DNA from: Terriglobia bacterium
GTDB lineage: Bacteria > Acidobacteriota > Terriglobia > 20CM-2-55-15
Assembly: GCA_963664115.2 (NCBI GenBank)
Contig: CAXWPJ010000005.1
Span: forward strand, 192,001-256,000
Reading direction: 5' to 3'
DNA: 64,000 nucleotides
The notes below the pieces were generated by a model. That model was given only the letters and a program-made list of their open reading frames with translations, was not told where the DNA came from and did no database searches. Positions 1 to 52,592 of the stretch are shown here, piece by piece (the first letter of the stretch is position 1; every line of letters starts with the position of its first letter). Position numbers and translations under genes: made by a program.

Positions 1-135
1 CCCAGGCCAATTCTCCGGGAAGCGTTTTGATCGCCGTGTCGTCCCCACGTTTCCTAACCCGCGCACGCCACAGGGCGCTCTTGCCGCCCTGAGTGAAAGG
101 ATGGTGTCGTGACCGAGTTTGGGGCCCGACGCCAT
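1..135 (-). pseudogene. Degenerate Ser/Thr kinase N-terminal stub, running off the window start
   Basis: The reverse complement reads MASGPKLGHDTILSL, then after a frameshift GGKSALWRARVRKRGDDTAIKTLPGELAW. It matches the 8327 stub and is preceded by the same leader (GCGACACACT..ATG). Confidence 0.7.
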
Positions 136-380
136 CGATCCAGTGTGTCGCTGACTGAAGCCTGAAAATCTGGCTCAATATACCTGCAGGTGGAAGTTAT
201 TCGCAAGAAAAGTCTCGAGTCCTGGCGAACGAATTGTTTTAAGTCGTAAAACGGCCCGAAGACAGCAATCGAGATATCGAGACATCGCGCAAGTGGGTAC
301 GGCAGGGCGCCATTGTTTGGGCGTGTCCTGGAATTCCCCCCACTGTTACCCAGAGCCTGACCCGGAACTCGATGGCAAAT

Positions 381-3317: not shown

Positions 3318-4763
3318 TTAGAGATAGTTGATAAAAGCCACCTTGTGTTCGGTAAAAAATTCGATACCGGTTTTGCCCGACTCGGGGATCCCGTGACCCG
3401 ACGACTTCACCCCGCCAAAGGACAACTGCGGCTCGCGATAGGCCGTCATCATGTTCACGTGCGTCAAGCCCACCTCGCTCTGGTCCAGAAACTGAAACGC
3501 GCGCGATATATCTCTGGTGAAAATCGATGACGTCAGCCCAAACTCCACCTGGTTGGCTATCTCCAGTGCTTCATCAAAATTCCGCGCCGCCATCACGCTC
3601 AACACCGGCCCGAAGATCTCCTCCTGTGCGATCCGCATCTCCGATTTGACTCCGGCGAAAACCGTCGGCGCGACAAAACACCCCCGGTCCAGGCCACTGT
3701 CGGTCAGCCGCTGTCCCCCCTCGACCAGCTCGGCCCCCTCGCCCTGCCCGATGTCGATATAGCCCATAATCGTCTCCAGTTGGTCCGAACCGCACACCGG
3801 CCCCATATCGACATCCCCGCGACCGTCACCCACCCGGATCGCCCGCACCCGCTCCAGCACCTTTTTGGTAAAGACCTCCGCCACCTCCTCGATCACGATC
3901 GCCCGGCTCGTCGACGTGCACCACTGCCCGGCGCAGGCATAGGCCGCTGTGACCACTGCATCCGCCGCCTTGTCGAGGTCGGCGTCTTCTAATATCACCG
4001 CCGGATTTTTGCCGCCCATCTCCAGCTGGGTGCGGATCAGCGTCTGGGCCACGCTCTGCTGTATCCCCTTGCCGACTCCCGTCGATCCCGTAAAGGACAC
4101 CGACTGCACCAGCGGATGGGTGATCATCTCGTCCCCGACCGTACTGCCCCCGCCGCAGACGAAATTCAGCACCCCTGGCGGCAGGCCGGCTTCGACAAAT
4201 ACATCGACAAAGGCTTTGCCCGCGCCTGGTGTCAGGCTGGCGGGCTTAAAGACGATGGTATTGCCGCTGATCAGCGCGGGTGTGCACTTGCGGCCCGGCA
4301 CGTTAAACGGAAAATTCCACGGGCTGATAATCGACGCCACCCCCAAGGGCCGCCGCAGGCTATAGGCGAAGACCCCCTTCTGCGCCGAGGGCACGGTCTC
4401 GCCGCACATCGTCACTCCCTGAGCGATCTGATACTCCATCTCGCGCACCGCCGACCGCACCTCGGTCAGCGCCTCGGCCAGGGACTTGCCATTTTCCGCC
4501 GTCAGCGTCGCCGCGATTGCCTCCGTCCTGCCCTTCAGCACCGCCACCGCCCGCGACAGATACTCCGCCCTCTGGAAAACACCGATCCCGGCCCATTCGG
4601 GGAAAGCCGCGTGCGCAGACTCGATCGCCTTCCTGGCGTCATCGCGGGTGCCCTTGGGCCAGATTCCGGTCACCTGTCCGAGGTCGGCCGGATTGCGCTG
4701 CTCGAAGGTCTGCCCATCCGCTGCGGGGACCCAGGCGCCGTCGATGTAGTTCTGCTGTTCCAT
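3318..4763 (-). CDS. NAD(P)-dependent aldehyde dehydrogenase (alpha-KGSA dehydrogenase-like)
   Basis: Motifs PWNFP, FTGS, LEMGGKNP, GQWCT, EEIFGP and FGG.K.SG. Confidence 0.93.
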   Translation of the reverse strand: MEQQNYIDGAWVPAADGQTFEQRNPADLGQVTGIWPKGTRDDARKAIESAHAAFPEWAGIGVFQRAEYLSRAVAVLKGRTEAIAATLTAENGKSLAEALTEVRSAVREMEYQIAQGVTMCGETVPSAQKGVFAYSLRRPLGVASIISPWNFPFNVPGRKCTPALISGNTIVFKPASLTPGAGKAFVDVFVEAGLPPGVLNFVCGGGSTVGDEMITHPLVQSVSFTGSTGVGKGIQQSVAQTLIRTQLEMGGKNPAVILEDADLDKAADAVVTAAYACAGQWCTSTSRAIVIEEVAEVFTKKVLERVRAIRVGDGRGDVDMGPVCGSDQLETIMGYIDIGQGEGAELVEGGQRLTDSGLDRGCFVAPTVFAGVKSEMRIAQEEIFGPVLSVMAARNFDEALEIANQVEFGLTSSIFTRDISRAFQFLDQSEVGLTHVNMMTAYREPQLSFGGVKSSGHGIPESGKTGIEFFTEHKVAFINYL

Positions 4764-4809: not shown

Positions 4810-4962
4810 CGCGGTCGCGCTCGATAGAGCGGCGGGTCACGTCGACGTCCCGACGCAGCTGCTGGGTCCCTCCTTTGCCCCTCCTTTGCCGCGGAGGACG
4901 AGCCCTACTTTGCCAGGGAGGACGAGGACTTCGTAGTGGCCGACTCTGGAGCCGGTTTCCAT
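4810..4962 (-). pseudogene. Degenerate Ser/Thr kinase N-terminal stub
   Basis: METGSRVGHYEVLVL...GKGG followed by QLRRDVDV after a frameshift; the upstream leader is homologous to 8260-8326. Confidence 0.75.
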
Positions 4963-5258
4963 CGTTATAGCGGGTTCCTAACTGAACCGTGAAATTCTGG
5001 CAAGATATAACGACAGGTGGGATTTCGGGTCACTGAAACTCTAATTCGATTGCGTCCTTAGGGTGTGTGTGGCCAAACTTCAACTTCCGACACGATGGGT
5101 GATCTCAGTTTCCATCGGAAGCCGACTTCTGGGTCCCTGGATGCTTTTGACCATTTTGAACGCCAGGCGACGACTCGTTACCGGTCTGGTGCTGACATCC
5201 GTTGGTTGCGGCTTACCTGATGTCTTTCAGCGATCAGTGGCTGCGATAGCGGACACAC

Positions 5259-7053: not shown

Positions 7054-8210
7054 CTGAATCGAAACACCTCAGAAACTGCCATATTCCGAAACACCACCGA
7101 GAGAAGAGGACAGGCTTCTGACTGCCCCGATCTATTTGGAGCCGTCCAATTCTTTAGGGGTTTGGCTCAATATATGAGACGGCATTGATTATCTCTGGCA
7201 AGGTCTCCCCCGTGGGGCAAGCGCCGCCATCCTCGTGGGGTTTCAAGCGGCCCACAGCCTTAGACGGAAGTTCATTTGTAGACGCTAATCAGTACACATT
7301 CCTGCAATGTTCTGCCCTTTGTGTCAGTCAGCATATCGTGATGGCTTTACAGCGTGCAGCGACTGCGAAGTGGGCCTCCTCGATTCGTTCAAGGACCTAG
7401 AGTTCTCCTCAGTAAGACCTTGGAAGGGAGAGCGACAAACTGTGTTCAACTTGATGCTCAGGGGATTCCGTCACACCTGAAAGAAATTCCAAATCTTGAA
7501 CCGAGAGAAGGGCGTTGGTGGATAGGGTGGCTTCCGATCTCTCCTAAGCTCGAATACGAAGTGTGGGTGCTCCGTTCCGATCTATGGGTGGTCGATTCCT
7601 CCTGTCGAAAGCGCCACGTCACCCTCAGGTGTGAATTCTCGCTCACAATCGGGCGAATGCCCCGCGCTACAACGACACAGCGCAAAACTTTTACGCATCA
7701 CAAGAATCGAAACCGGCAGCATACAAGACGAGACTCTCCTGGTTCTGCTGGCAAGTTTGCAGCGACTTTTGAAACCCGAGGACAGAACCTTAAAAGTCAA
7801 AAATTGAACTGCGGTAGGCGGCTTTGGCATTTCGAAAGCAATTTCTCATCTATCAAAACTTCATCGCCATTCCTGAAACGTATTTGCGAATCCGACTCAC
7901 TCAAATCAGACGTTTCGAAACTTAAATCAGCATGCCTCAAGGTTGCTCCCAGATCTTGAAAGGTGGCAACACCATTCTGAAACCGTAAAGCGTTCCCGAA
8001 ATACAACAAACCATCCGCTCACAAGCGGAAGATAAGATTTTTCACCCAGCTTCGAAGCATGAGTATCTCAATGAGACAACGGGAGGTCTAAGATGATCAT
8101 CTGGGCCCTGAAGAGCACCTTGATCGTGGTCGAATCCCTTTAAAATATACATTGCAAAAGGATTCTAGAAGCCACCAGGTGGTTAGAACGTGACTTGCGA
8201 GGCCGACTAA

Positions 8211-8249
8211 TTCTCACTGTCCGACAAGGTCGTTTCTCAGGACCTGACC
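8211..8249. repeat. Upstream inverted repeat of a kinase-shell unit
   Basis: Its reverse complement matches 10421-10459 at 30/39 positions without gaps. Confidence 0.85.
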
Positions 8250-8255
8250 TTCTGA

Positions 8256-8284
8256 TTGCTTACAACTCCCACCTCTAGTATCGT
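8256..8284 (+). promoter_or_regulatory. Sigma70-like promoter conserved across units
   Basis: TTGCTT-17-TATCGT; homologous positions at 19306-19334 (TAGCGC-17-TATCTT) and 22559-22587 (TTGCGT-17-TATCTT). Confidence 0.6.
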
Positions 8285-8326
8285 TTGCCGAGTTTTTCAC
8301 GGTTCGTTTCGACGCACACTAAAACG

Positions 8327-8482
8327 ATGGAATCAACCACACAACTCGGCCACTACGAGATCTCAACGCTCTTGGGTAAGGGTGGAATGGGAGAAGTTTG
8401 GCGTACGAGAGATACGAAGCTGGGACGTGAAGTTGCCATCAAGACGGTGTCTGAAGAGTTTGCGAGAGACGCCGACCGATGA
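8327..8482 (+). pseudogene. Ser/Thr kinase N-terminal stub (subdomains I-II, 51 aa)
   Basis: [51 protein letters not shown]; the stop overlaps the next ATG (ATGA). Confidence 0.9.
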
Positions 8483-10179
8483 AGCTTTTCAACAGCCAAT
8501 TCTCGCATGTCTTCAGCAAAGGCGAGATGCGCCGGAACCTCTTGACCTTACTCCGCTACCTCGCCTTTCTCTTCGCTATCGTTCTTACCTACGCCCTGAT
8601 CTTTCAGCTGATTATGATTGGCGTGGAGGACCAGTCACACTCCTGGATGACGGGCATCTACTGGACGCTCGTCACCATGACGACCCTCGGATTTGGTGAC
8701 ATTACATTCGCCACTGATATTGGCCGCCTTTTCAGCGTCTTCGTCTTACTGTCAGGCGTCGTCCTGCTCCTCGTTGTACTCCCCTTCACCTTCATCCGCT
8801 TCTTCTATGCGCCATGGCTCGAAGCCCAGGTGAGACTCAGAGCACCGAGGCGGCTTCGACCTTCGGTAAGAGAGCACGTGATCATCAGTCGTCACGACGA
8901 AATCGCCGCCGGTTTGATTGAGCGGCTGCGCCCCGAGGCGATTCCGTACTGCGTGATCGAGCCGGATCCAACCGTTGCGGCGCAGATGCTCAGCCAGGGT
9001 ATCTCCGTCGTCACGGGCGACATCGACAACCGGCTAACCTACGAAGGGGTCAATGTTCAGCAGGCCCGGCTGGTGCTTGCTAACCGAGAGGACACGACCA
9101 ACACGAACCTCACCCTAACTGTACGTGAGGTCACCACGGATGTCCCGGTCGTCGCGTTCGTCGAGAATCAGGACTCAATCGACATTTTGGAGCTCAGTGG
9201 TGCCACGCATGTGCTTGCTCTGAAACAGCGTCTGGGTGAATACCTCGCCAATCGCATCAGTGGCGGACAGGGCCACGCGGACGTAATCGGGGAGTTCAAG
9301 GGACTGCAGATCGCCGAGTTCCCAGCGCACAATACCCAGCTCGCCGGACGGAACGTGCGCGAGACGCGAATGCGAGAGACGATGGGCTTGAACATCGTCG
9401 GCGTCTGGCAGCGCGGCCGGCTACGACCGGCGTTTCCCGATACCCAGATCGTCGATCAGAGTGTCGTCGTCGTGGTCGGCGTGCCGGAGCAGATCGGCGA
9501 GTTGAATGGCCTCCTCCACCGCCCCGATGTGCGCGATGAGCCAGTTTTGGTCATTGGCGGTGGCAAGGTGGGACGCGCTGCGACGCGTGCCCTCAAGCGG
9601 AAAGGTGTTCCCGTGCACGTGCTCGAACGCGACGATCGGGCACACGACAAACTCGCGGGCATCTGCGATCAGCATTTCGTGGGTGACGCTGCTGATCGGG
9701 AGGCCCTGATGAGGGCGGGCCTGCAGAACGCTCCCTCAGTGCTGCTGACCACGAATGATGACGCCATGAACGTGTACCTAGCCGTGTACTGCAGGCGACT
9801 CAAGCCAGATCTACGGATCGTCAGCCGGATTACGCACGAGAGAAACCTCGAAGCGATCCATCGGGCGGGCGCAGATTTCGTGTTGAGCTACTCGACGCTG
9901 GGAGTGGAAGCTGTCTTTTCGGTGCTGCAAGGCCATGAGCTCGTCATCTTGGGGGAAGGTGTCGACCTATTTACGGTGGACCTCCCCCCTTCTCTGCAGG
10001 GCAAGATGCTTGCGGAAACTGGCATCGGCTCGCGAACTGGGCTGAGCGTGGTCGCGGTTGGCCAGAATGCGCAGCTGGTGACGAAGCTTCACTCTTCGAT
10101 GCGACTGGAGCCGGGCGCAAAGTTGATCATGCTGGGGAGCGTCAAGCAGCGGCAGGCGTTTGCCGACGCGTTTGGGTAG
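8479..10179 (+). CDS. Potassium channel protein with tandem RCK (TrkA-N/C) domains
   Basis: Two TM helices, filter [15 protein letters not shown], and two TrkA-N/TrkA-C pairs. Confidence 0.9.
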
Positions 10180-10380
10180 GCCCGCGGTTTCTCGGCCAAG
10201 GTATCTGCTAACCGATCCAAAATCTCCCGCAGCCACCTTCAGTTCGGGTGGCGGAAGGGGTCATCTGCGCTTCTCCCGAGTGTACCGGCACGATCGACAA
10301 CCGCGATCGTAACGACAACCAGCACACCGTTACGCCTGCAAGATTCGATCACACTGTCAACAACGGCCATCGCCTGCGCC

Positions 10381-10413
10381 ACCGAACTGAAGGAACGCGT
10401 GCCGGTTCCCTGA
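10381..10413 (+). pseudogene. Kinase C-terminal stub
   Basis: Reads TELKERVPVP*. Confidence 0.8.
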
Positions 10414-10420
10414 TTTGCGA

Positions 10421-10459
10421 GGTCAAGTCCTGATAAATCATCTTCGCGGACGTTGAGAA
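10421..10459. repeat. Downstream inverted repeat of a kinase-shell unit
   Basis: GGTCAAGTCCTGATAAATCATCTTCGCGGACGTTGAGAA, with homologs at 12532, 19201 and 22467. Confidence 0.85.
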
Positions 10460-10693
10460 ATTCTGCGAACCGTTCCACATTGTTTAGCGGCACTGATATT
10501 TCGATAGCTTCCGTGTACATTAATTAATATTCTCTATGAAGCTTTTATCCGCCACGCCTGATGAGCAAACGGAGGCGTGGACGAACTTCTGTCGAGTAAG
10601 CCACGACGAGAGATCCGAGGACGCGGAGGCCTGCCTGAAGCATCGAAGCAATGGCATGCCCATACCCGCAAACACCCTATGGGGGATTTCCAG

Positions 10694-11316: not shown

Positions 11317-11772
11317 GTGATGAAGCAACTATTACTGTCAGCGCTCATGCTGGGGATGCTCACAAGCATCGCGGAGTCCCGGCAGGCTGAGGGACCCTCT
11401 GCATCGGCAACCTCCTCCAATCTCATCCAACAATTTTTGATGGCCTACAACAGCCAGGACACAGCCTATTTCGACAGAACGCTGGCAAACGATGCCGTCG
11501 TTCTCGATGAGGACGGACACACGCTGACCGGCAAACCCCTGTTGATGCGCATTCTGGGCGGACGACTCTCGGCTACCCCTGCACCGCGTCTCGTTGCTTC
11601 AGACATTACAGGGTCGAATGCCGGGGACGTAGCGTGGGGCTCGCTGAACTACACTTTCGAGCAGGGTGACGAAACAAGAATGGGTTTCATGACTCTGGTC
11701 TTCCAAAGGTCCGGTAACAATTGGGAGATCGCGCACTGGCAGTTTTCCATCCATACGGTGCCTGAAGGCTAA
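11317..11772 (+). CDS. Exported NTF2/SnoaL-like (DUF4440) protein
   Basis: Signal peptide; C-terminal TLVFQR....W.I.H.QFS. Confidence 0.75.
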   Translation: MMKQLLLSALMLGMLTSIAESRQAEGPSASATSSNLIQQFLMAYNSQDTAYFDRTLANDAVVLDEDGHTLTGKPLLMRILGGRLSATPAPRLVASDITGSNAGDVAWGSLNYTFEQGDETRMGFMTLVFQRSGNNWEIAHWQFSIHTVPEG

Positions 11773-11832: not shown

Positions 11833-11907
11833 TCGGCACGTCCGAACGAAACCAACATCGTCCTCAATTGGTTTGAAGAACTGAAGGAACGGGTGCCGGT
11901 TCCTTGA
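11833..11907 (+). pseudogene. Kinase C-terminal stub
   Basis: Reads SARPNETNIVLNWFEELKERVPVP*. Confidence 0.88.
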
Positions 11908-11986: not shown

Positions 11987-12424
11987 ATGGGGTATTTGAG
12001 GCTCTGCGCGGCCATCGTCGGGATACTTCTGTTGTTGGGTTGTTCGAGTTCTGAGGAGGGTCGTTCCGTTAACCTGAACGCCGATCAATTGGCTGAAGGG
12101 GCGTTGGGAGAGATGCGATCGGAAGGCGAGGCATCGGCTGTGACTGTCCTGAGAATCCTGAATACGGCTGCAGTGACGTACTTTGTTAGGAACCGGCGCT
12201 ACCCAAGCGTCGAAGAATTAACCGAGGCGGGGTTGGTGAACATTGAGGATGCTGCAAATTCACAGGGACCGTATCGTTACCACATCTCTGAAACGGAGAC
12301 CGGATATGAGATAGTTGCCCGCCCGGAGGAGGAGTCTTGGGCCCACTTTTATTATGACGAGACGGGCCTCATCCGTTCCGAAATCGGGCGGCCTGCCAAT
12401 GCGGAGAGTGCTCCAGTGAATTAG
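11987..12424 (+). CDS. Hypothetical lipoprotein with a pilin-like globular domain
   Basis: GGAGG RBS; lipobox LLGC; E.SA...LR.LNTA..TY and Y.I.ARP...FY.DETG.IR. Confidence 0.6.
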   Translation: MGYLRLCAAIVGILLLLGCSSSEEGRSVNLNADQLAEGALGEMRSEGEASAVTVLRILNTAAVTYFVRNRRYPSVEELTEAGLVNIEDAANSQGPYRYHISETETGYEIVARPEEESWAHFYYDETGLIRSEIGRPANAESAPVN

Positions 12425-12475: not shown

Positions 12476-12570
12476 AGGTTCGAGGAACTGAAAGAATGAG
12501 TGCCAGTCCCCTAAATGAGCGTGAAAATGATTCTCAAGTCCTGACAAATCATCTTCTCGGACATTGAGAA
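12476..12570 (+). pseudogene. Kinase C-terminal stub plus downstream inverted repeat
   Basis: RFEELKE*VPVP* at 12476-12514, then TCTCAAGTCCTGACAAATCATCTTCTCGGACATTGAGAA at 12532-12570. Confidence 0.82.
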
Positions 12571-12815
12571 TTCGTTGATTCCAACCATTGCTTCCAACCC
12601 ACTCGTTCCAAAACTAGAACTGGTTGCCAGAAGCCGCCTTCTGGGGCGTTGAATTTGGATCGGTAAACGCTACAGCGTTACTGAGGAGTAATCGTTGCGA
12701 TGATGAGGCTTGAACTGTTGGGGCCTTGGATACGATTCACATTTCCGCATACGCGATTATACGGCCAGGTGACTCTTCGATTGCTATTAAACCCAACATG
12801 TAGTTTGATTTACAA

Positions 12816-12972
12816 ATGATAGAGCCGGACAGGACACCCGCACGCCACGAGATTCTTTCCATCCTCGAAAAAGGCGTCATGGGTCAGGTCTGGCGATAGC
12901 GACGCGAACATAGGACCTGAAACTGCGATCCGGACACTACCGGAAGAGCTCGTGAAAGACACCGACCGATGA
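12816..12972 (+). pseudogene. Degenerate kinase N-terminal stub
   Basis: MIEPDRTPARHEILSILEKGVMGQVWR, frameshift, DANIGPETAIRTLPEELVKDTDR*. Confidence 0.8.
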
Positions 12973-13015: not shown

Positions 13016-14080
13016 CTGTCTCTAGACGATTTCGGCTTCTCACCGTTTTTCGCAAGAGCGCTCGGAGGCTTAGCCCCTGAGCTCGAGCCGGCACGCGTTA
13101 TCGTGTCGCGCGGGGCATTTCAGCGGGTCGTTACCGAACACGGCGAATCGGATACCTCGGTCTCGGGGACGCTGCGCCACAAAGCGTCCCCTGCCGGGCT
13201 CCCAACGATTGGCGACTGGGTCGCTGTTCGGGAGGGCCGGATCGAGAACGTCCTTCCCCGTCTCACCAAGCTGTCACGCAAAGTCTCCGGTAAACGGACG
13301 CGGGAACAGGTTGTAGCGGCGAACGTCGATACGGTTATCGTCGTGATGGGACTGGACCGGGACTTCAGCAAATCGAGACTCGAACGCTATCTGTCCACTG
13401 TGCGGGCCAGCGGGGCGAAGCCGGCGGTCGTCCTCAACAAAGTGGACGTCGAACCCGGTTTCGAAGCGCGGCGAAACGAGATCGAAACCCTCATGATGGG
13501 CGGCCCTGTCGTCGCAGCGAGTTGTCTGGAAGGTTTCGGACTCGATGAAGTTCGCGCACTGCTCCGCCCCCGACACACGGCCGTTCTGGTGGGCTCGTCT
13601 GGCGTCGGCAAATCGACGCTGATCAACTTAATGCTGGGTGAAGCCCGGCAGACGACGCGCAGCGTCGGCTCACACAACGACCGGGGACAGCACACCACGA
13701 CCCATCGGGAGCTATTCCAGATTCCAGGGGGAGCATTGCTCATTGACAGCCCGGGTATACGAGAACTCCAGCTCTGGGCAAACGATGACGGGCTCAGCCA
13801 GGACTTCGACGATATTACGCGGCTGGCGATTGCTTGCCGGTATCGTGACTGCGCCCATGACGATGAACCCGGCTGTGCCGTCACCGGAGCCATTGCGGCT
13901 GGCCGGCTCGACGCCGGACGACTCGACAGTCTCCGCACGATGCGAAAAGAACTCGAAACGCTTCGCAAGCGCAAGGATGATGCGAGGGATCGGATTGAAG
14001 AACGGAAGTGGCGAAGCACTCAACGAGAGATACGCCGATCGGGCGGCATTGAGGAACCGGATGGAGAGGAACCCGATTGA
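13016..14080 (+). CDS. rsgA: Ribosome small subunit-dependent GTPase A; start uncertain (CTG 13016 or GTG 13103)
   Basis: GDWV, AANVD, NKVD, GSSGVGKST, HTTT, DSPG and zinc finger C.Y.DC.H..EPGC. Confidence 0.92.
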   Translation: MSLDDFGFSPFFARALGGLAPELEPARVIVSRGAFQRVVTEHGESDTSVSGTLRHKASPAGLPTIGDWVAVREGRIENVLPRLTKLSRKVSGKRTREQVVAANVDTVIVVMGLDRDFSKSRLERYLSTVRASGAKPAVVLNKVDVEPGFEARRNEIETLMMGGPVVAASCLEGFGLDEVRALLRPRHTAVLVGSSGVGKSTLINLMLGEARQTTRSVGSHNDRGQHTTTHRELFQIPGGALLIDSPGIRELQLWANDDGLSQDFDDITRLAIACRYRDCAHDDEPGCAVTGAIAAGRLDAGRLDSLRTMRKELETLRKRKDDARDRIEERKWRSTQREIRRSGGIEEPDGEEPD

Positions 14081-14148: not shown

Positions 14149-14589
14149 AGCCAACCTGTCAAACCTGGGATGATCAATCCAACTATCTGTAACGATTTTC
14201 GAATGCCTTGTCCGCAACGCACGCGGGGGAGGACGTCATCTGCGATCCAAGAATCGACTGACATGTGGCTGCCGGACGCCCAATTTCCCTGAAACTCCCA
14301 AATAGTCCGGTGCTGGGCATCTGGGTCGATTTTAAATGCTTGGTAAGTCGCCTATACGGAAAAGTGCATTCAGAATGAGGCAGCGGATTACTCCTCCCTT
14401 GTCGCCTAGCGTTTAGGAATGGGCATTAACGACCCAAAAGTCGGCTTCGGGGAAGTCGGCGGAGACAGAGATGACGGCTCAAGTCCTGTATCTGGACTCC
14501 TCTGTCAAGTAGGCGCAGCTCTCCCGTCAGCTTTCTTCGGCAAAATGCATTCAGCAGGACTGACTAGAAGTTACGAGATGAGTAGCTAG

Positions 14590-16420
14590 TCCCTGAACAA
14601 GCGTGATTGACGAGGAAATGATAGTGCAATAAGAGCGGAAGTACCCGAAATGCCCCTCTCCGTGCGAAAAAAACCTTGGACAGATTCTTCGGAAAAGGAG
14701 GCATTTCAGATGAACGATTATACGCGCAAGAACATGAGGAACCGCAAGCGGCGAATCGAACGTCGGCTTGGGGACCGGCATTGGACGGATCAGGTAGAGC
14801 CGATGTTTTCGGCGAGCAACATTCAGTACGAGATGGGAGAGCGGACGCGGGGCACATCGGTTGGTGGTATCGGGACGATGCAACTGGTGGCGCGGCGGAC
14901 CGGGCTGATCGAAGCCATCGACAAGGGCGTGCATGTGTTGAAGCGGCACCTGCCGTATCACGAGTCGGATCACGTGCTGAACATCGCCTACAACGCCTTG
15001 AGCGGAGGAACGTGCCTGGAAGACATCGAACTGCGGCGCAACGATGCGGTGTATCTGGATGCGCTGGGAGCGCAACGGATTCCGGATCCGACGACGGCGG
15101 GAGACTTCTGCCGGAGATTCGAGGCCGACGACGTGGAGTGTCTGATGGAGGCAACCAATCAAGTCCGGCTCGGAGTCTGGCGACAGCAACCGGCGGCGTT
15201 TTTCGAAGAAGCGGTGTTGGACGCGGACGGGACACTGGCCGAAACCACGGGGGAATGCAAGCAAGGGATGGACGTGGCCTACGACGGGACGTGGGGATAT
15301 CACCCGCTGATGATCTCGCTGGCCAACACCGCCGAACCGCTGTATCTGGTCAATCGTAGCGGCAACCGGCCGTCGCATGAAGGAGCCGCGGTCCGGTTCG
15401 ACCAAGCCATCGCATTGTGCCGGCATGCGGGGTTTCGCCAGATCCTGCTGCGCGGGGACACGGACTTCAGCCAGACCCGGCATCTGGACGGATGGGACGA
15501 CCAGCAGGTGGGTTTCATATTCGGGATTGACGCGATGGCGAACCTGAAGGCCCGGGCCGATGAACTGGAGCCGCGCCAGTGGAAGCGCCTGGAACGGCCC
15601 GCGAAATACGACGTGGCGACCGAACCGCGCCAACGTCCCGACAACGTGAAGGAAGAGATCGTTCGGCAGCGCGGTTTCGACAATATCCGCTTGCAGGGTG
15701 AGGATGTGGCCGAGTTTCGGTATCGACCCGGAGCCTGCGATCGGGACTACCGTGTCGTCGTGGTGCGGAAGAATCTGTCGGTGGCCAAAGGAGAGCAGGT
15801 GTTGTTTGACGAATCCGGTACTTGGCTACATTACCAACCGTTCGGATCCGGCCGATCAGATTGTGATGCGTGCCAATCAACGGTGCAATCAGGAGAACTC
15901 ATTGAGCAGTTGAAGAACGGCGTTCAGGCGTTGCGGATGCCGGTCGGAGATCAGACCAGCAACTGGGCCTACATGGTGATCGCGTCACTGGCCTGGACAC
16001 TGAAAGCGTGGTTTGCATTGCTGCTTCCCGAAACCGGACGTTGGGGCCAAAAATATCAGGCTGAGAAGCAAACCGTGCTGCGCATGGAGTTCAAAACCTT
16101 CTTGAACGCTTTCATGCTTGTGCCGTGCCAACTCGTGCGCACCGGGCGGCGCATTCTGTTCCGGATCCTGGCCTGGAACCGGTGGTTGCCGGTCTTGTTC
16201 CGCGGGGTGGATGTGTTGCGTCGCCTCTGCGATGTTGACCCGATCATGACTTGAGCCCGGGCGATCGAGGTCCCGGTTTCTGTCAACCGTCCAACACCAG
16301 CGAGGCTGAACTGAAACAGATTCAACAGAAACTCGATACCTGGAACAGGCCATCCGGGAACGGGATTCTATGCCTCGAATTCTTCGGCGAACTGGGCCTC
16401 GGCGGACTGGTTATGCGCTT
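14590..16420 (+). mobile_element. IS1380-family copy 1, frameshifted and lacking the right end
   Basis: Near-identical to 16436-18284 but with several small indels and without the last ~9 bp. Confidence 0.9.
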
Positions 16421-16435
16421 GAGATGAGTAGCTAG

Positions 16436-18284
16436 TCCCTGAACAAGCGTGATTGACGAGGAAATGATAGTGCAATAAGAGCGGAAGTACCCGAAATGCC
16501 CCCTCTCCGTGCGAAAAAAACCTTGAACAGATTCTTCGGAAAAGGAGGCATTTCAGATGAACGATTATACGCGCAAGAACATGAGGAACCGCAAGCGGCG
16601 AATCGAACGTCGGCTTGGGGACCGGCATTGGACGGATCAGGTAGAGCCGATGTTTTCGGCGAGCAACATTCAGTACGAGATGGGAGAGCGGACGCGGGGC
16701 ACATCGGTTGGTGGTATCGGGACGATGCAACTGGTGGCGCGGCGGACCGGGCTGATCGAAGCCATCGACAAGGGCGTGCATGTGTTGAAGCGGCACCTGC
16801 CGTATCACGAGTCGGATCACGTGCTGAACATCGCCTACAACGCCTTGAGCGGAGGAACGTGCCTGGAAGACATCGAACTGCGGCGCAACGATGCGGTGTA
16901 TCTGGATGCGCTGGGAGCGCAACGGATTCCGGATCCGACGACGGCGGGAGACTTCTGCCGGAGATTCGAGGCCGACGACGTGGAGTGTCTGATGGAGGCA
17001 ACCAATCAAGTCCGGCTCGGAGTCTGGCGACAGCAACCGGCGGCGTTTTTCGAAGAAGCGGTGTTGGACGCGGACGGGACACTGGCCGAAACCACGGGGG
17101 AATGCAAGCAAGGGATGGACGTGGCCTACGACGGGACGTGGGGATATCACCCGCTGATGATCTCGCTGGCCAACACCGCCGAACCGCTGTATCTGGTCAA
17201 TCGTAGCGGCAACCGGCCGTCGCATGAAGGAGCCGCGGTCCGGTTCGACCAAGCCATCGCATTGTGCCGGCATGCGGGGTTTCGCCAGATCCTGCTGCGC
17301 GGGGACACGGACTTCAGCCAGACCCGGCATCTGGACGGATGGGACGACCAGCAGGTGGGTTTCATATTCGGGATTGACGCGATGGCGAACCTGAAGGCCC
17401 GGGCCGATGAACTGGAGCCGCGCCAGTGGAAGCGCCTGGAACGGCCCGCGAAATACGACGTGGCGACCGAACCGCGCCAACGTCCCGACAACGTGAAGGA
17501 AGAGATCGTTCGGCAGCGCGGTTTCGACAATATCCGCTTGCAGGGTGAGGATGTGGCCGAGTTTCGGTATCGACCCGGAGCCTGCGATCGGGACTACCGT
17601 GTCGTCGTGGTGCGGAAGAATCTGTCGGTGGCCAAAGGAGAGCAGGTGTTGTTTGACGACATCCGGTACTTCTTCTACATTACCAACCGTTCGGATCCGG
17701 CCGACCAGATTGTGATGCGTGCCAATCAACGGTGCAATCAGGAGAATCTCATTGAGCAGTTGAAGAACGGCGTTCAGGCGTTGCGGATGCCGGTCGGAGA
17801 TCAGACCAGCAACTGGGCCTACATGGTGATCGCGTCACTGGCCTGGACACTGAAAGCGTGGTTTGCATTGCTGCTTCCCGAAACCGGACGTTGGGGCCAA
17901 AAATATCAGGCTGAGAAGCAAACCGTGCTGCGCATGGAGTTCAAAACCTTCTTGAACGCTTTCATGCTTGTGCCGTGCCAACTCGTGCGCACCGGGCGGC
18001 GCATTCTGTTCCGGATCCTGGCCTGGAACCGGTGGTTGCCGGTCTTGTTCCGCGGGGTGGATGTGTTGCGTCAGCCTCTGCGATGTTGACCCGATCATGA
18101 CTCTGAGCCCGGGCGATCGAGGTCCCGGTTTCTGTCAACCGTCCAACACCAGCGAGGCTGAACTGAAACAGATTCAACAGAAACTCGATACCTGGAACAG
18201 GCCATCCGGGAACGGGATTCTATGCCTCGAATTCTATCGGCGCGAACTGGGCCTCGGCGGACTGGTTATGCGCTTGTTTTGGGA
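16436..18284 (+). mobile_element. IS1380-family element copy 2
   Basis: Ends CCCTGAACAAGCG and CGCTTGTTTTGGG, flanked by CTAG on both sides. Confidence 0.92.
16557..18089 (+). CDS. IS1380-family DDE transposase
   Basis: LDADGT, GYHPL, RSGN, LRGDTDF and R...EN.I..LK. Confidence 0.92.
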   Translation: MNDYTRKNMRNRKRRIERRLGDRHWTDQVEPMFSASNIQYEMGERTRGTSVGGIGTMQLVARRTGLIEAIDKGVHVLKRHLPYHESDHVLNIAYNALSGGTCLEDIELRRNDAVYLDALGAQRIPDPTTAGDFCRRFEADDVECLMEATNQVRLGVWRQQPAAFFEEAVLDADGTLAETTGECKQGMDVAYDGTWGYHPLMISLANTAEPLYLVNRSGNRPSHEGAAVRFDQAIALCRHAGFRQILLRGDTDFSQTRHLDGWDDQQVGFIFGIDAMANLKARADELEPRQWKRLERPAKYDVATEPRQRPDNVKEEIVRQRGFDNIRLQGEDVAEFRYRPGACDRDYRVVVVRKNLSVAKGEQVLFDDIRYFFYITNRSDPADQIVMRANQRCNQENLIEQLKNGVQALRMPVGDQTSNWAYMVIASLAWTLKAWFALLLPETGRWGQKYQAEKQTVLRMEFKTFLNAFMLVPCQLVRTGRRILFRILAWNRWLPVLFRGVDVLRQPLRC

Positions 18285-18591
18285 CTAGTATAGCTGTGCT
18301 TCAGGTCTCTCACAATTGGGCGCCAGACGAAAGAAGATCACGTCTGACCAATCAGTGACAGGGAGAAACGAGCTGTCCCAGCCGAACCGGTCGCGCCGGA
18401 AGGCGAAGGGAAGGGGATGCTAAACAATGCATTATCGGGTACGAAATGTCCTGCCGCAGTCCGGTTGGAGGCTAGTTTCCAGGTAAGGAACCGGGAAGCC
18501 GTCACGGACCGGCCTCAGGTCTCGGCAGATCCGGGTAAAAGCTATCGCGTGTAATCGAATGGTGAGCGATTCATTGCGATACGTGAAGAAC

Positions 18592-18935: not shown

Positions 18936-19067
18936 TCAAGGCTTTGCGCAGCACACACATGTGCAGTGGCACCGGGATGGTTCGCCCTCACATGTGCAGG
19001 AACAACCTTCCGGTCCACAGTCGCAATTTTCGCAGCATTTGCATTGGCACTGATGTTCGGTGGGCAT
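18936..19067 (-). CDS. Metallothionein-like Cys-rich small protein (43 aa, 14 Cys)
   Basis: MPTEHQCQCKCCENCDCGPEGCSCTCEGEPSRCHCTCVCCAKP*; AAGGAGGT RBS; TATAAT at 19092-19097; downstream CTACC-GGAA-GGTAG hairpin. Confidence 0.8.
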   Translation of the reverse strand: MPTEHQCQCKCCENCDCGPEGCSCTCEGEPSRCHCTCVCCAKP

Positions 19068-19175
19068 GTCAAACCTCCTTCTTCACTCGCAATTATAGCC
19101 GACGGACTGTCCCTTTCGCAGGGAGGCGGGGCAGCGCCACGAACGACCGGCTGATGGTCGCAGACGTCGATGGCG

Positions 19176-19299
19176 CGGGTCCCGGTGCCCTGATTTGCGA
19201 TCTCAAGTCTTGAAAAATTCCCTTCTCGGACATTGAGAATCGGGCAAATTTCTGGGGATTTTCAACGTCATCAAGAAGGTCGTTTGCCAGGACCTGAGA
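19176..19299 (+). repeat. C-stub (RVPVP*) plus a complete ~99-bp imperfect palindrome at a unit junction
   Basis: TCTCAAGTCTTGAAAAA...CCTTCT..GACATTGAGAATC pairs with GATTTTCAACGTC..AGAAGG...TTTGCCAGGACCTGAGA (19201-19299). Confidence 0.85.
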
Positions 19300-19376
19300 A
19301 TTTGATAGCGCCTAAATTACTCCTCTAGTATCTTTTACCGAGAATTTAACTGTTCATTTAGCGACACACTTCGAAC

Positions 19377-19409
19377 ATGGAATCTGGCACCAAACTCGAC
19401 CATTACGAA
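19377..19409 (+). pseudogene. Short kinase N-terminal stub, in frame with the amidohydrolase
   Basis: MESGTKLDHYE after the conserved leader. Confidence 0.8.
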
Positions 19410-19439
19410 CAATCGCTCGATTTTTTAAGGAGAGGTACT

Positions 19440-21104
19440 GTGAAACATTTGAACTGGAAAACGACAGTGGCTCTTGTTCTGTTCGCAAGTTCCGTTGCTG
19501 CATCAATGGCTCATGCACAGGATCAGGCTCCGGATCTGGTTCTGTCCAACGGAAAGGTCGTTACTGTAGATGACCGCTTCACGATCGCAGAAGCGGTGGC
19601 TATCGGGGGCGAACGTATCGTGGGAGTCGGCACGAATCAGGAAGTCGCGCGACTGGCCGGGCCCAATACCCGAACGATCGATCTCGGAGGGCGTACCGTT
19701 ATTCCCGGCCTGATCGATAACCATGCTCACATCATGGAAGAAGGTCCGATCTGGCAGTTGGAACTGCGTCTGGATGGGGTGGAATCGCGGACCGAAGCGC
19801 TCGAGATGATACGCGGGCGGGCAATCGATCTGGGTCCGGGCGAATGGGTTTTCACACTGGGCGGTTGGGCGACGGATCAATTCACAGACGACGTGAGTCA
19901 TTTCACACGCGACGAGTTGGACCGGGTTGCTCCCGACAACCCGGTACTGTTGCAGTACACACGCTCCCACACTTATCTCAACAGCCGCGCTATAGAGGCC
20001 ATCGGGTTGAATGAGATGAACGCTCCATGGATCGTGCGCGATGATGGCGGAAGACCGACAGGCGTGATCGAAGCTGAGGGCATCAACCAAGTCGGACGAG
20101 CGCGTCCCGCGCCGCCAGAAGAATTGTTCGAATCCAGCAGCCTGGCAATGATCCGCGATATGAACCGAGCGGGTCTTACCACGGCCGGCGGTCCCTGCCC
20201 CGCGAACCTCATAGACAGGTTCCGGCAATTTGCAGATGAGGGTCGGCTCAATATGCGGTTCTTCTGTTTTCTGCCGACGGGAGCGTCCGGCACCCCAGCC
20301 CAGGTGGATCGCCTTCTGCCGCAGATCGCCGAGTTGAAACCGTTCCAGGGCGACAACTGGGTGGATCTGACCGCCTACGGAGAAAGCGTATACCGCCCGC
20401 TGCACGACAGCATGCTGGCACGCACAACCAATCCAACACCCGAGCAGCTTTTCCAGTGGCGACGCGTCGCGACTGAAGTTGCCCGTGCTGGATTACCGCT
20501 GCACGTACACGCCACGATCGAGAACACGATTACCGGATTTCTCGACCAGATCGAGCTGATTAACCAAGAGTACCCCATACGGAATCTGCGCTGGGCTTTG
20601 GCTCATGTTGACCAGGTGAACGCCTCACACATCGAGCGCATGAAGGATCTCGGGATGTACCTCGCGGTACATACGCGGCCGACCGTCATGGGCCAGATCT
20701 TCAACCGTGCGCATGGCGACCGTTCCTACGATATGCCGCCGCTGGCGCTCATCGAGAACAGCGGGATCGTGTGGGGCCTGGGAAGCGACACGTTCGAGGT
20801 GAATCAGTACCGGCCGTTCACGACCCTCTGGTGGGCTGTGACCGGGAAGATGGTAGGCGGCACCGAGGTCCTCAGGCAGACAATCGGCCGCGAAGAAGCC
20901 TTGATCGCCCACACGCGCGAAAATGCCTACCTGGTGTTTCAGGAAAACAATCTGGGTTCAATCCAACCCGGCAAGCTGGCGGATCTGCTAGTTCTGGACC
21001 GCGATTACCTGACGATTCCAGCCGACGAGATCAAGGACATCCAACCCCTGATGACGATTGTAGGAGGACGCATCGTCTACGACGCCGACGCTGATCAGGA
21101 CTGA
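19440..21104 (+). CDS. Exported amidohydrolase (Amidohydro_3/YtcJ-like)
   Basis: Own RBS and GTG start; signal peptide; IDLGGRTVIPGLIDNHAH; GSD; GSIQPGKLADL. Confidence 0.88.
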   Translation: MKHLNWKTTVALVLFASSVAASMAHAQDQAPDLVLSNGKVVTVDDRFTIAEAVAIGGERIVGVGTNQEVARLAGPNTRTIDLGGRTVIPGLIDNHAHIMEEGPIWQLELRLDGVESRTEALEMIRGRAIDLGPGEWVFTLGGWATDQFTDDVSHFTRDELDRVAPDNPVLLQYTRSHTYLNSRAIEAIGLNEMNAPWIVRDDGGRPTGVIEAEGINQVGRARPAPPEELFESSSLAMIRDMNRAGLTTAGGPCPANLIDRFRQFADEGRLNMRFFCFLPTGASGTPAQVDRLLPQIAELKPFQGDNWVDLTAYGESVYRPLHDSMLARTTNPTPEQLFQWRRVATEVARAGLPLHVHATIENTITGFLDQIELINQEYPIRNLRWALAHVDQVNASHIERMKDLGMYLAVHTRPTVMGQIFNRAHGDRSYDMPPLALIENSGIVWGLGSDTFEVNQYRPFTTLWWAVTGKMVGGTEVLRQTIGREEALIAHTRENAYLVFQENNLGSIQPGKLADLLVLDRDYLTIPADEIKDIQPLMTIVGGRIVYDADADQD

Positions 21105-21140
21105 TCGACCCAGGACCCGCCAATTGCAGAAAGGAAGCTC

Positions 21141-21197
21141 GTCACATCGCTCCTGAACTGGTTTGAAGAACTGAAGGAAGGTGTGCCCTTTCCGTGA
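21141..21197 (+). pseudogene. Kinase C-terminal stub
   Basis: Reads VTSLLNWFEELKEGVPFP*. Confidence 0.88.
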
Positions 21198-21321
21198 TTT
21201 CGAGTTCAAGGTGACAACGAATCATATTGTCGGTGGTTGAACATTGGATCGTTGATGGCAGAGTCAGCGGTTGATCCAGCCCTGGATCATTGTAATCAAG
21301 CAGACGACACGAGAGGTGGAG

Positions 21322-22341
21322 ATGAACATCAAGATTTGTCGCACCGCGGTTGCGCTCAACCTGCTCTGGCTGGCCACCATGGGATGTCAGGTGGAGGATC
21401 AAGCAGATGGAGCGGCTGGTTCGGATGCAGCGCGCACCACGGCCGTTCTGGCCGCAGGGCCTAACGCCGCCCTGTCACAGTTCGCTTTGCCCGACATCGA
21501 GATCCGTTCTGATCTTGAGTTGGGAACGTTGCCCGAGGGCTGGAGAACCGGCGGACCAGACTGCACCGACATGCCCCGCTGGCAGGTACACGCGTACAAC
21601 CCTGACTTCTATATCCTCCGACAGTCCGGCTGCATCCACTATGAGAAGCCCTTCCTGTACCTGATATTTGGTGAGGAGCGGGCCTTGCTTGAGGACACCG
21701 GTGCCGGTGATGCGGATACCGCGGCCCTCGTCCTGCCGCTCGTGGAGCAATGGTCTGAACGAAACGGCAAGGACAGCCCGATTCCCCTGACCGTCGTTCA
21801 CTCGCACTCTCACGGCGATCATGTGGCCGGTGATCGGGGGTTCGACAACCTTCCTGGTGTCGCAGTCGTGGCCGCTGCTGTCGGCGATATCCAAGTTGCC
21901 TTTGGAATTGAGAACTGGCCGTCGGATACGGGTCAGATTGATCTTGGCGACCGCGTGCTGGACGTGATTCCCATTCCGGGACACGACGGGGCGAGTATCG
22001 CGCTGTATGACCGGGCGACGGGGGTGCTCCTGACCGGAGACAGCCTCTACCCGGGCCGGCTCTACGTGGGCTACAACAACTTCCGCGCCTTCGTCGAGAG
22101 CAACCAGCGGCTCGTAGATTTCACCCGGGACCGACCCGTTGCCCACATCCTGGGCACGCACATCGAGCAGACTCGGACTCCTTTCGTTGACTATCCGCGG
22201 GGCACTCGATACCAGCCTGACGAACACACGCTCGAGATGTCGCGGGGATTGCTTCTCGAGTTGAACGGCGCACTCATTGACCTCAACGGAACGCCGGAAG
22301 AGGTCGCGTTGCGCGACCTCACGTTGTTCCCGATTCGGTAA
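21322..22341 (+). CDS. MBL-fold metallo-hydrolase, probable lipoprotein
   Basis: HSHGDH, PGH, TGD and lipobox-like MGC. Confidence 0.85.
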   Translation: MNIKICRTAVALNLLWLATMGCQVEDQADGAAGSDAARTTAVLAAGPNAALSQFALPDIEIRSDLELGTLPEGWRTGGPDCTDMPRWQVHAYNPDFYILRQSGCIHYEKPFLYLIFGEERALLEDTGAGDADTAALVLPLVEQWSERNGKDSPIPLTVVHSHSHGDHVAGDRGFDNLPGVAVVAAAVGDIQVAFGIENWPSDTGQIDLGDRVLDVIPIPGHDGASIALYDRATGVLLTGDSLYPGRLYVGYNNFRAFVESNQRLVDFTRDRPVAHILGTHIEQTRTPFVDYPRGTRYQPDEHTLEMSRGLLLELNGALIDLNGTPEEVALRDLTLFPIR

Positions 22342-22466
22342 GAGGCCTTGACCATCGTTGGGCCGATAGGCGTACACCTCTATTCCGGCGCCATGCAGTC
22401 CTAGGGTTCAGCCACGAGCCTCTAGCTGAGCGAATCAAGAAGACCGGATCCAGAACGAAAGCCATG

Positions 22467-22551
22467 CTCAAACCCTGACAAATCTTGTTGAGAATGGCTT
22501 GAAATACGGGGGTTTCCGAGTGTCCGGTTAGATCTTTTGCCAGGACTTGAG
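22467..22551. repeat. Junction palindrome of the kinase-shell family
   Basis: CTCAAACCCTGACAAA ... TTTGCCAGGACTTGAG, followed by the conserved promoter and leader. Confidence 0.8.
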
Positions 22552-22636
22552 AGTTTGGTTGCGTCTGACCCTCTCGTTTAATATCTTTTACGAAGATTTT
22601 TCACTGTTCGATACGCTACACATAGAGGTGACTCCG

Positions 22637-23617
22637 ATGAAAAGAGCTATGACATATGTGACGTTGGGGGCGGTGTGCGCTCTTCTGTCCTGCAGCGCCG
22701 CCCTTCCCCAGGAAGTGATTCCGACTGGAGGTCCGATTCCCGACATACGCGGATTCAACAGCCGGGTCAACGATCCCGAGGCGGTGGCGGCGATCGAGGT
22801 AATCGTCCGCCATGTTGCCGGCCAGGTGTACGTGATTGCCGGAGCAGGTGGAAACATGACGGTCATGGCGGGCGACGATGGGATATTCATCGTCGACACG
22901 AATTTCCCCGTCTTATACGACGAGATCATGACCTTGATCCGGCGAATCTCGGATGGACCCATCCGCTTCGTGGTCAATACGCACTCTCACGTGGACCACG
23001 CCGGCAACAACGAAAACTTTGCCCGGGAGGGCGCGGTGATCGTCACCCAGCCCAACCTGCGCAGGGCACTGATCGGAGACAGCAGCGGATCGGATCTTCC
23101 GGGCGGACTGCCTGTGATCACATCGACGGAACCGATGTCGTTTCACTTCAACGGAGAGGAAATCCTCTTCGTGCCCTTATTGCCCTCGCACACGGACGGC
23201 GATGCGGCCGTTTACTTCAGCGGATCCGACGTGTGGTCCTTTGGTGACGTGTATCGGACAGACTATCCGTCCCTGAATCCCGCCGTTGGCGGGACGATCG
23301 AGAATTTCAAAGATATTTACAGCATGGCGCTCGATATGACCACCCCAGAAACTATTTTCGTTCCCGGCCACGGCCAGCTCTCGCCCAGAGAGGAACTGAG
23401 CGGAGTACTGGAGGCCATAAATACGATTCACGAGCGTTTCCGCGACATGATAGCCCGGGGCATGACGCTCGAGGAGATCACCGAGGCGCGTCCGTCAAGA
23501 GAGTTCGATGCGCGTTTCTCCAGCGAATCCAAGTCGCCCACCACGGGCAATACGGTAGAGCGCGTTTACAGCCGTTTGTACGATGACGTTTCAAGGGAGC
23601 TGGCAGAACAACAGTAG
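22637..23617 (+). CDS. MBL-fold metallo-hydrolase (cyclase-like)
   Basis: NTHSHVDH.GNN, HTDGD and VPGHG. Confidence 0.87.
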   Translation: MKRAMTYVTLGAVCALLSCSAALPQEVIPTGGPIPDIRGFNSRVNDPEAVAAIEVIVRHVAGQVYVIAGAGGNMTVMAGDDGIFIVDTNFPVLYDEIMTLIRRISDGPIRFVVNTHSHVDHAGNNENFAREGAVIVTQPNLRRALIGDSSGSDLPGGLPVITSTEPMSFHFNGEEILFVPLLPSHTDGDAAVYFSGSDVWSFGDVYRTDYPSLNPAVGGTIENFKDIYSMALDMTTPETIFVPGHGQLSPREELSGVLEAINTIHERFRDMIARGMTLEEITEARPSREFDARFSSESKSPTTGNTVERVYSRLYDDVSRELAEQQ

Positions 23618-46123: not shown

Positions 46124-46203
46124 AAAATGGGGTCAGAGCCCTATATTCCCTATTTAAAATTCCGAGTCTATTAATTCGGTAAATAGGGCTCTGACCCCAT
46201 TTT
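46124..46203. repeat. REPIN-like element with 21-bp perfect inverted repeats
   Basis: AAAATGGGGTCAGAGCCCTAT ... ATAGGGCTCTGACCCCATTTT around an AT-rich spacer. Confidence 0.85.
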
Positions 46204-50298: not shown

Positions 50299-50302
50299 CT
50301 AG

Positions 50303-52151: not shown

Positions 52152-52592
52152 CTAGAGTTGGGAGTTCGCCACATAGGATGTCGTCGGAACTCGGAGATAA
52201 TATTCTTACTCTGAACGCCTCGGCTACCGCCTCGTTGTTCACCCGCACCGTCGGACCGGTGCGGGTTTGATTAAAGAACTGCATCAACAATTCTTAATCC
52301 CCAATACGCCTCTCCATCAGGATGATGGAGAGGGTCGCCGGTCGTTCGGCCCAACGCGCTCGGCGCGACAGAGATGGCCGGCCGTTTGAACGACCGAGCG
52401 AAATCTTATGTGAGGAACTTCCAATTCAGGACACCAGTCCACTCGTAGCACAGAGTTCCCCACACCGTTGTACTCACCACTCATATGTCACACAGCCGTC
52501 GTATGAATGACACTAATCCTTGCCGAGACTAAACCTTTCCGTGTCGCATCCTGTCTAACCGAAAAACCGTACCAATGTGTGCGGTTCAACTC

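Follow-up and report, generated by a model that had tools for sequence, protein, structure and literature searches.

The window analysed is a stretch of 64,000 nucleotides (coordinates 1-64,000, equivalent to G000:C5:192001-256000, with G000 denoting the host genome). Positions 8209-10461 hold a complete unit, in which an inverted site B, a predicted promoter, the N-terminal stub of a Ser/Thr kinase gene, a K+ channel gene as cargo, the C-terminal stub of the kinase and a site A follow one another. An orthologue of the K+ channel gene (93% identical) lies likewise inside a kinase shell in genome G001. The following features were located in the window:

93-219, minus strand: leader copy, TTGCGA (206-201)-18-TATATT (182-177), with a frameshifted stub from the ATG at 135; its cargo starts just beyond the window edge and has its own Shine-Dalgarno sequence (SD)
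4925-5042, minus strand: degenerate fifth leader and stub, upstream of an aldehyde dehydrogenase gene (3318-4763)
8209-8251, minus strand: site B with an 11-6-11 dif-like core and spacer ACGACC, inverted relative to the cassette (PWM/nhmmer score 50.8); left boundary of the shell
8256-8284, plus strand: predicted sigma-70 promoter, TTGCTT (8256-8261)-17-TATCGT (8279-8284), predicted TSS near 8291
8285-8326, plus strand: kinase 5' leader, no SD
8327-8482, plus strand: kinase N-terminal stub of 51 codons (Pkinase match, E 3e-4), its stop overlapping the cargo ATG
8479-10179, plus strand: K+ channel cargo (Ion_trans_2 and TrkA_N/C), no SD
10384-10413, plus strand: kinase C-terminal stub with stop codon
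10419-10461, plus strand: site A with spacer ATCATC, closing the K+ channel shell on the right
11849-11907, plus strand: kinase C-stub, 3' of a SnoaL-like gene (11320-11772)
12476-12572, plus strand: kinase C-stub and site A, 3' of a gene at 11987-12424
12846-12972, plus strand: decayed kinase N-stub upstream of an RsgA-like GTPase gene, also ending in ATGA; no promoter detected
19199-19301: degenerate doublet of site A (19199-19241, plus strand) and site B (19258-19301, minus strand)
19302-19334, plus strand: predicted promoter, TTGATA (19302)-18-TAGTAT (19326-19331), with the overlapping alternative register TAGCGC-17-TATCTT
19377-19408, plus strand: kinase N-stub of ~11 codons that shares the reading frame of the cargo, regarded as incidental
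19440-21104, plus strand: amidohydrolase-3 cargo with its own SD (19427-19435), a GTG start and, by eye, a signal-peptide-like N-terminus
21148-21243, plus strand: kinase C-stub and decayed site A
22455-22553: A/B doublet preceding the third leader, decayed to a score under the HMM threshold and recognised by eye and from inverted repeat I10
22559-22587, plus strand: predicted promoter, TTGCGT-17-TATCTT (22582-22587), with kinase leader to ~22622 and no stub
22637-23617, plus strand: MBL-fold hydrolase cargo with its own SD (22625-22630)

The leader at 8285 is one of 111 copies of the 5' region of a Ser/Thr kinase gene in the host genome, which also encodes four complete kinases of the same kind, each 877-902 aa long and including a PD40 propeller. 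The closest relatives of the kinase in the genome collection are from Terriglobia (Acidobacteriota). The arrays contain 111 leaders, 155 C-stubs and 219 A and 67 B site matches, in clusters that span ~625 kb with assembly overlaps counted. An intact cassette is composed of the promoter, a leader lacking an SD, the ~890-aa kinase with its propeller and site A, often with an inverted site B in front. A hollowed unit reads inverted B, promoter, kinase N-stub, cargo, kinase C-stub and A. Most arrays are polarised, with leaders, C-stubs and A sites in one direction and B sites in the opposite one; neighbouring sites are mostly direct A...A, and inverse B...A pairs occur in shells such as 8209-10461. 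A promoter region is present in 99 leaders; 73 of these have an A site, a B site or both immediately 5' of them, and 35 run to a C-stub and site A with nothing else between. The array proteins include 17 DUF6152 proteins (among 150 scanned of 173 listed), MBL-fold proteins, amidohydrolases, ribosomal protein S1 and a primary sigma factor; the housekeeping-type genes inside arrays are located at L001:7972-9402 (ribosomal protein S1), L004:491-2176 (primary sigma-70) and window positions 13103-14080 (RsgA GTPase). Cargo junctions are scattered: the extremes lie within the leader and 365 nt into the kinase. At two approximate positions, G000:C1:110669(+) and C9:1278830(-), the called cargo start codon coincides with the position of the kinase ATG, apparently as clean replacement of the ORF. 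Some kinase C-stubs in G001, G004 and G007 precede other, longer repeats instead of site A (L033:15598, L034:11340, L036:14579, L031, L032), which suggests further site families.

An earlier note on this DNA had claimed that the spacing between the -35 and -10 boxes was kept at 8256, 19306 and 22559, with an 18-bp variant on the minus strand. The spacing was confirmed at 8256 (17), at 22559 (17) and at 206-177 on the minus strand (18). At 19306 the proposed register, TAGCGC-17-TATCTT, is present with a poor -35 box and is surpassed by the match TTGATA-18-TAGTAT at 19302-19331. The 19302 promoter was the sole site to pass a 9-of-12 consensus scan of the plus strand from 19000 to 23000; the 8256 and 22559 promoters, taken singly, each missed it. 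A search of window positions 1-24000 against Rfam returned no match. Public DNA contigs cross the junctions at 19306 and at 22559, differing at 0-3 positions, and the 8256 junction was absent among the contig pieces listed. In Logan RNA contigs (X1, X2), coverage was confined to three parts of the K+ channel gene (9158-9318, 9628-9870 and 9767-9917) and left out the leaders. Joints recorded among the listed pieces have short sides and also fit further copies of the repeats, and they were set aside.

Across 95 full-length leaders, the mean best sigma-70 hexamer score was 14.3, as compared with 10.8 for shuffled sequences, and 55% of the leaders were individually significant (P<0.05). The best match always fell in either of two registers (56/95 and 39/95). 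The subfamily in which the -35 box has decayed to TAGCGC carries an upstream TT(G/A)ATA-18-TAGTAT pair; native tRNA promoters of the genome use similar variants (e.g., TTGCCT-18-TATCAT), and G007, from another genus, has the near-consensus TTGACC-17-TATCAT in the register of 8256. The leader position 7 nt past the -10 box (alignment column 50) is a purine in 96% of copies. When leaders were compared with their nearest neighbours, 25 of 509 key promoter bases differed, versus 349 of 3670 bases in spacer and UTR (P=3.5e-4). Stub codon positions 1-2 are conserved like the promoter bases, and promoter scores are the same for co-oriented and opposite cargo (14.35 versus 14.33), so promoter conservation may be inherited from the intact kinases. 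The pattern may fit present selection or descent from intact kinases alike.

The orientation of the cargo was read from the nearest gene, kinase and IS genes excepted, that lay within 800 bp of each leader. Of 73 such genes in the host genome, 61 were co-oriented with the leader and pointed away from its promoter (60/72 after removal of one assembly-overlap duplicate) and 12 were opposite, as compared with 48 of 79 co-oriented genes at A sites without a leader (P=0.002). A replicate was performed by the same rules on 974 kb of G002 and G003 arrays, picked around known matches, and gave 49/58 versus 25/47 in the control (P=6e-4); replicate cargo less than 80% identical to any host gene was co-oriented in 28 of 34 cases. 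These P values are overstated, since kin copies are not independent. In the window, the distances from junction to cargo start are 0 (K+ channel), ~30 nt and ~15-20 nt, which leaves no room for a cargo-derived promoter. The kinase DNA left before co-oriented cargo is also shorter than that before opposite cargo (median 47 versus 76 nt, P=0.04). The closest homologues of the MBL gene (87-89%) have a TTGACA-17-TACAAT promoter of their own; at 22637 the kinase leader stands in its place, and a G002 copy with 82% protein identity has the same leader-MBL junction. Judged from these sequences, the MBL gene at 22637 is a lasting swap of predicted promoters.

A neutral origin of these arrangements was weighed against the same data. 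The arrays would then be insertion hot spots of decaying kinase pseudogenes, in which the leader is a passenger and the cargo relies for expression on promoters of its own or further upstream. The equal promoter scores for the two cargo orientations, the premature stops in many stubs (6 and 12 cases in two counts) and the insertion of three IS families into the sites are compatible with such debris. Moreover, read-through into the 22559 leader is possible, since the preceding gene points the same way and no plus-strand terminator was predicted. These points are opposed, however, by an orientation bias well over the leaderless-site control in two data sets, by kinase/cargo junctions no more than ~30 nt from the cargo start, by the shorter kinase remnants before co-oriented cargo and by the preservation of the leader-MBL junction between species, and the neutral account is considered unlikely. 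The donation of a predicted promoter from the kinase shell to its cargo is regarded as highly probable, in agreement with the earlier proposal that the shell supplies expression: the promoter is placed to drive the cargo, and the orientation bias was found twice.

Translational coupling was assessed with stub ORFs crossing the junction, the real frame being compared with the three possible frames; overlaps were called strict when the stop lay at -8 to +3 of the cargo start. Start codons were taken from a custom gene caller, which mis-called two starts in the window (19506 and 22559), so single coupling classes can be wrong. Strict overlaps were found in 10 of 32 cases in the host genome (6.0 expected, P=0.026), in 3 of 24 in the G002/G003 replicate (1.7 expected, P=0.19) and in 13 of 56 when pooled (7.7 expected, P=0.009). 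In-frame fusions of stub and cargo numbered 3 of 56, versus 6.7 expected. A coupling window of <=20 nt, chosen post hoc (14/32 versus 7.3), did not hold up in the replicate (5/24 versus 4.3) and was dropped. An SD-like motif is present in 2 of 81 leaders, and 41 of 61 cargo genes have an SD of their own.

At the K+ channel gene, the overlap of the stub stop with the cargo start described in the earlier note was read directly as ATGA at 8479-8482, and coupling is plausible at this junction, where an SD is absent. The orthologue in G001 is uncoupled, with a longer stub whose stop lies well upstream. The 11 bp before its ATG equal the kinase codons at the host junction, a match that is ambiguous between a microhomology deletion and the remnant of a shared older junction. 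The stub at 19377 is, as claimed, in frame with the amidohydrolase gene; a functional role is not supported, the gene having its own SD and GTG (19440). The fusion is regarded as incidental because the G003 orthologue (96% identical) lacks a stub but shares this SD and GTG. The MBL gene does follow its leader directly, without a stub, and likewise has its own SD.

A more far-reaching alternative would be a full expression platform, in which the promoter and a leader peptide are generally coupled or fused to the cargo in the manner of attI1 ORF-11. The pooled excess of strict overlaps, the lack of an SD at the K+ channel gene and the retention of the leader ATG in 97-99% of aligned copies (a figure biased by HMM coverage) argue for it. 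On the other side, 43 of the 56 translated stubs are uncoupled, the replicate alone is not significant, fusions fall below expectation and the G001 orthologue is uncoupled. A leader of the ORF-11 type would have an SD and a stop regularly at the cargo start, and the counts given above (2/81 and 13/56) show neither. General coupling of stub and cargo, and with it the full platform, is therefore deemed improbable; of the translational coupling put forward earlier, a minority feature with weak pooled support stands.

Sites A and B have an 11-6-11 core with AA and TT beside the spacer, within a repeat of ~40 bp. The 6-bp spacer and its AA/TT flanks are kept across the variants ATCATC, ACGACM and ATCCGG (the last in G004). 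A strict PWM returned 185 sites in the host genome and none in 1.1 Mb of shuffled DNA; by spacer, 155 of them were A (mostly ATCATC) and 28 were B (mostly ACGACA/ACGACC). The site A pattern was counted 121 times in G000, 76 in G002, 35 in G003, 8 in G001 and once in G007. The remaining 16 searched genomes lack it, and a reversed control pattern gave no match at all. Set against the GC skew, which is weak, site orientations split 64 versus 40 and carried no information. Two IS110 families insert at fixed positions in site A (one of them also in B) and one IS30 element in the spacer, so that three IS families share one 40-bp target (G000 loci C5:47850, C9:1234222, C10:234698, C10:425315, C11:41221 and C12:333885; C11:1468, C11:29339, C12:167990 and C10:417589).

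Mobility is indicated by two segments, of 1327 bp (99.3%) and 423 bp (95.5%), each found at two loci between flanks that diverge and each bounded by site A at both ends. A junction at C11:55480 joins the flanks of two C6 sites (C6:27114/39773) with the breakpoint inside site A. Large blocks are common to contigs C6 and C11 but differently arranged, and this rearrangement may be a population variant or haplotype, or an assembly artefact. Site-specific mobility of the units is considered probable from the sequence comparisons.

REP and REPIN elements with their RAYT enzymes are known as hundreds of short imperfect palindromes after stop codons, arranged in inverted doublets and targeted by IS110. 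Sites A and B resemble them: site A often lies ~6-16 nt past the kinase stop and folds weakly as RNA (mean MFE -12), A/B inverted doublets occur, IS110 elements insert, and RAYT-like Y1 genes are present in 5 of 5 genomes searched. The sites could accordingly be REP-like RNA hairpins or operators spread by RAYT or gene conversion, with flanks exchanged by homologous recombination, for which 40-bp repeats could also serve. Unlike in REP/RAYT systems, however, no RAYT gene was found flanked by the sites (among 10 Y1 loci examined of 18 returned, one had site A, on one side only), and one other Y1 subfamily is flanked by a different repeat. The two fixed spacer classes, the persistence of the 6-bp spacer with its AA/TT flanks across variants and the segments duplicated with both ends in the repeat likewise speak against this explanation, which is considered rather unlikely.

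For the preferred reading of A and B as recombination sites, candidate recombinases were compared. The dif site of the genome lies at C2:108118-108145; reversed site A matches its arms in 8/11 and 5/11 consensus positions (means 7.0 and 5.1; background frequency 9e-5). XerC and XerD were the only tyrosine recombinases found common to G000, G002 and G003 (the G002 list extends to E<=1e-25, and 7 of its 8 matches were compared); a phage-type integrase is common to G000 and G003 (70%). XerCD is put forward as the best candidate for the acting enzyme, although the assignment falls slightly short of probable. A 321-aa tyrosine recombinase (L018:16189-17154, i.e., C5:52189-53154) lies between two divergent units of site B, leader and stub, and a 61% homologue in G007 is also located beside a kinase leader; it was rejected as a dedicated enzyme, being absent at E<=1e-60 in G002, G003 and G004. 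A 293-aa integrase was likewise rejected, as it is part of an IS91-type pair and absent among the matches of G003. No large serine recombinase (PF07508) was found in the host genome; resolvases are present. The gene at C9:714590, which we take to be IntI-like from reading its sequence, lies 195 kb from the nearest site and was not among the top matches of any of the 13 tyrosine recombinase matches of G003; no integron integrase was found beside the arrays. The GTTRRRY core of attC pairs with its AAC complement. In the ~40-bp sites examined here, the G of the single GTT is conserved at 48%, and the partner is AAG in 86%.

The arrays were also compared with known cassette systems. The pdif sites of Acinetobacter have 28 bp, with two 11-bp arms around a 6-bp centre (PMC12907356; 10.1101/2022.12.17.520857). 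Like those of the XerCD-associated pdif/dif modules, the present sites are of the 11-6-11 type, occur in large numbers per replicon (including chromosomal islands), enclose varied gene cargo and are hit by insertion sequences. Unlike in the modules described there, the sites are mostly direct type A repeats with a minority of inverted type B, the units derive from a single kinase gene and retain its promoter and its two ends, and the IS110 (two families) and IS30 elements insert inside the site, whereas pdif IS elements lie 5-6 bp outside; the second arm is, in addition, far from the host dif (5/11).

As in sedentary chromosomal integrons (PMC8876359), the arrays are polarised and consist of units with one or a few genes, every unit ending in a repeated site; promoters lie inside cassettes, as with PcmlA, and a short upstream ORF is occasionally coupled to a gene without an SD, as with ORF-11 of attI1. 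The differences from integrons are the absence of an attC core and of an integron integrase at the arrays, the presence of ~100 paralogous promoters from one source gene in place of Pc with mostly promoterless cassettes, and a stub that, unlike ORF-11, lacks an SD and has no built-in coupling. The earlier analogy with integron Pc, a single platform promoter, is only partly right because each unit has its own promoter: ~100 promoters lie inside the units, 3' of a recombination-type site. As analogies, cassette-borne promoters and dif modules are better suited than Pc. No description of a kinase-shell system was found in the literature searched, in which few subscription papers were within reach.

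Overall, the data are best read as a multicopy kinase cassette with its body replaced, whose promoter would transcribe the cargo, whose units would move at dif-like repeats and in which coupling would be a minority feature; this combined reading is held to be fairly likely. The kinase cassette would have been multiplied through its end sites. Foreign DNA would then have entered by events that were not site-specific, as junctions fall anywhere from the leader interior to within the kinase, and deletions would have eroded the dead kinase towards both ends, leaving the promoter end and the site end. The orientation bias suggests that cassettes with cargo facing away from the kinase promoter were preferentially kept, which would make the promoter the donated part. 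Most cargo keeps its own SD, and cargo without one, such as the K+ channel gene, may gain from the ATGA overlap. Segments appear to be copied or re-joined at site A, as the products indicate, and the enzyme would most likely be the host XerC/XerD.

More tentatively, a genus of Acidobacteriota may have evolved a cassette-making system of its own, in which the kinase cassette is a chassis that gives a promoter and a Xer-type site to any gene landing in it. If so, ~13% of the genome would be a superintegron-like library of expressed, shufflable cassettes that does without an integron integrase, and a route for the birth of new cassettes would be visible. To our knowledge, the way in which ordinary genes turn into mobile cassettes has yet to be settled both for integrons and for dif modules. 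Here a single genome shows the intermediate stages together, from the intact kinase through long and short stubs to the promoter alone, and the occurrence of the same cargo at different stages in relatives makes capture and promoter take-over directly testable. Were XerCD the driving enzyme, a chromosome-segregation enzyme would have been co-opted for >100 chromosomal sites. The hollowed kinase is likely a reusable, and probably a mobile, ready-to-express gene cassette.

Some further elements were recorded. Two divergent copies of a Y1/RAYT-like gene (G000:C10:490081 and 492691), conserved across the genus (65-85%), lie without flanking A/B pairs. The 31-bp inverted repeat I12 at window positions 46124-46203 resembles the repeats on either side of a RAYT-like Y1 gene found in G003 (L206) and in G001 (L216) and is a probable REP of a separate RAYT system. 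Tandemly arranged copies of a DDE_Tnp_1_4 transposase element, 78-copy in all, occupy positions 14575-18288 and 50299-52155 of the window; small deletions and a different C-terminus set the first copy apart from the second.
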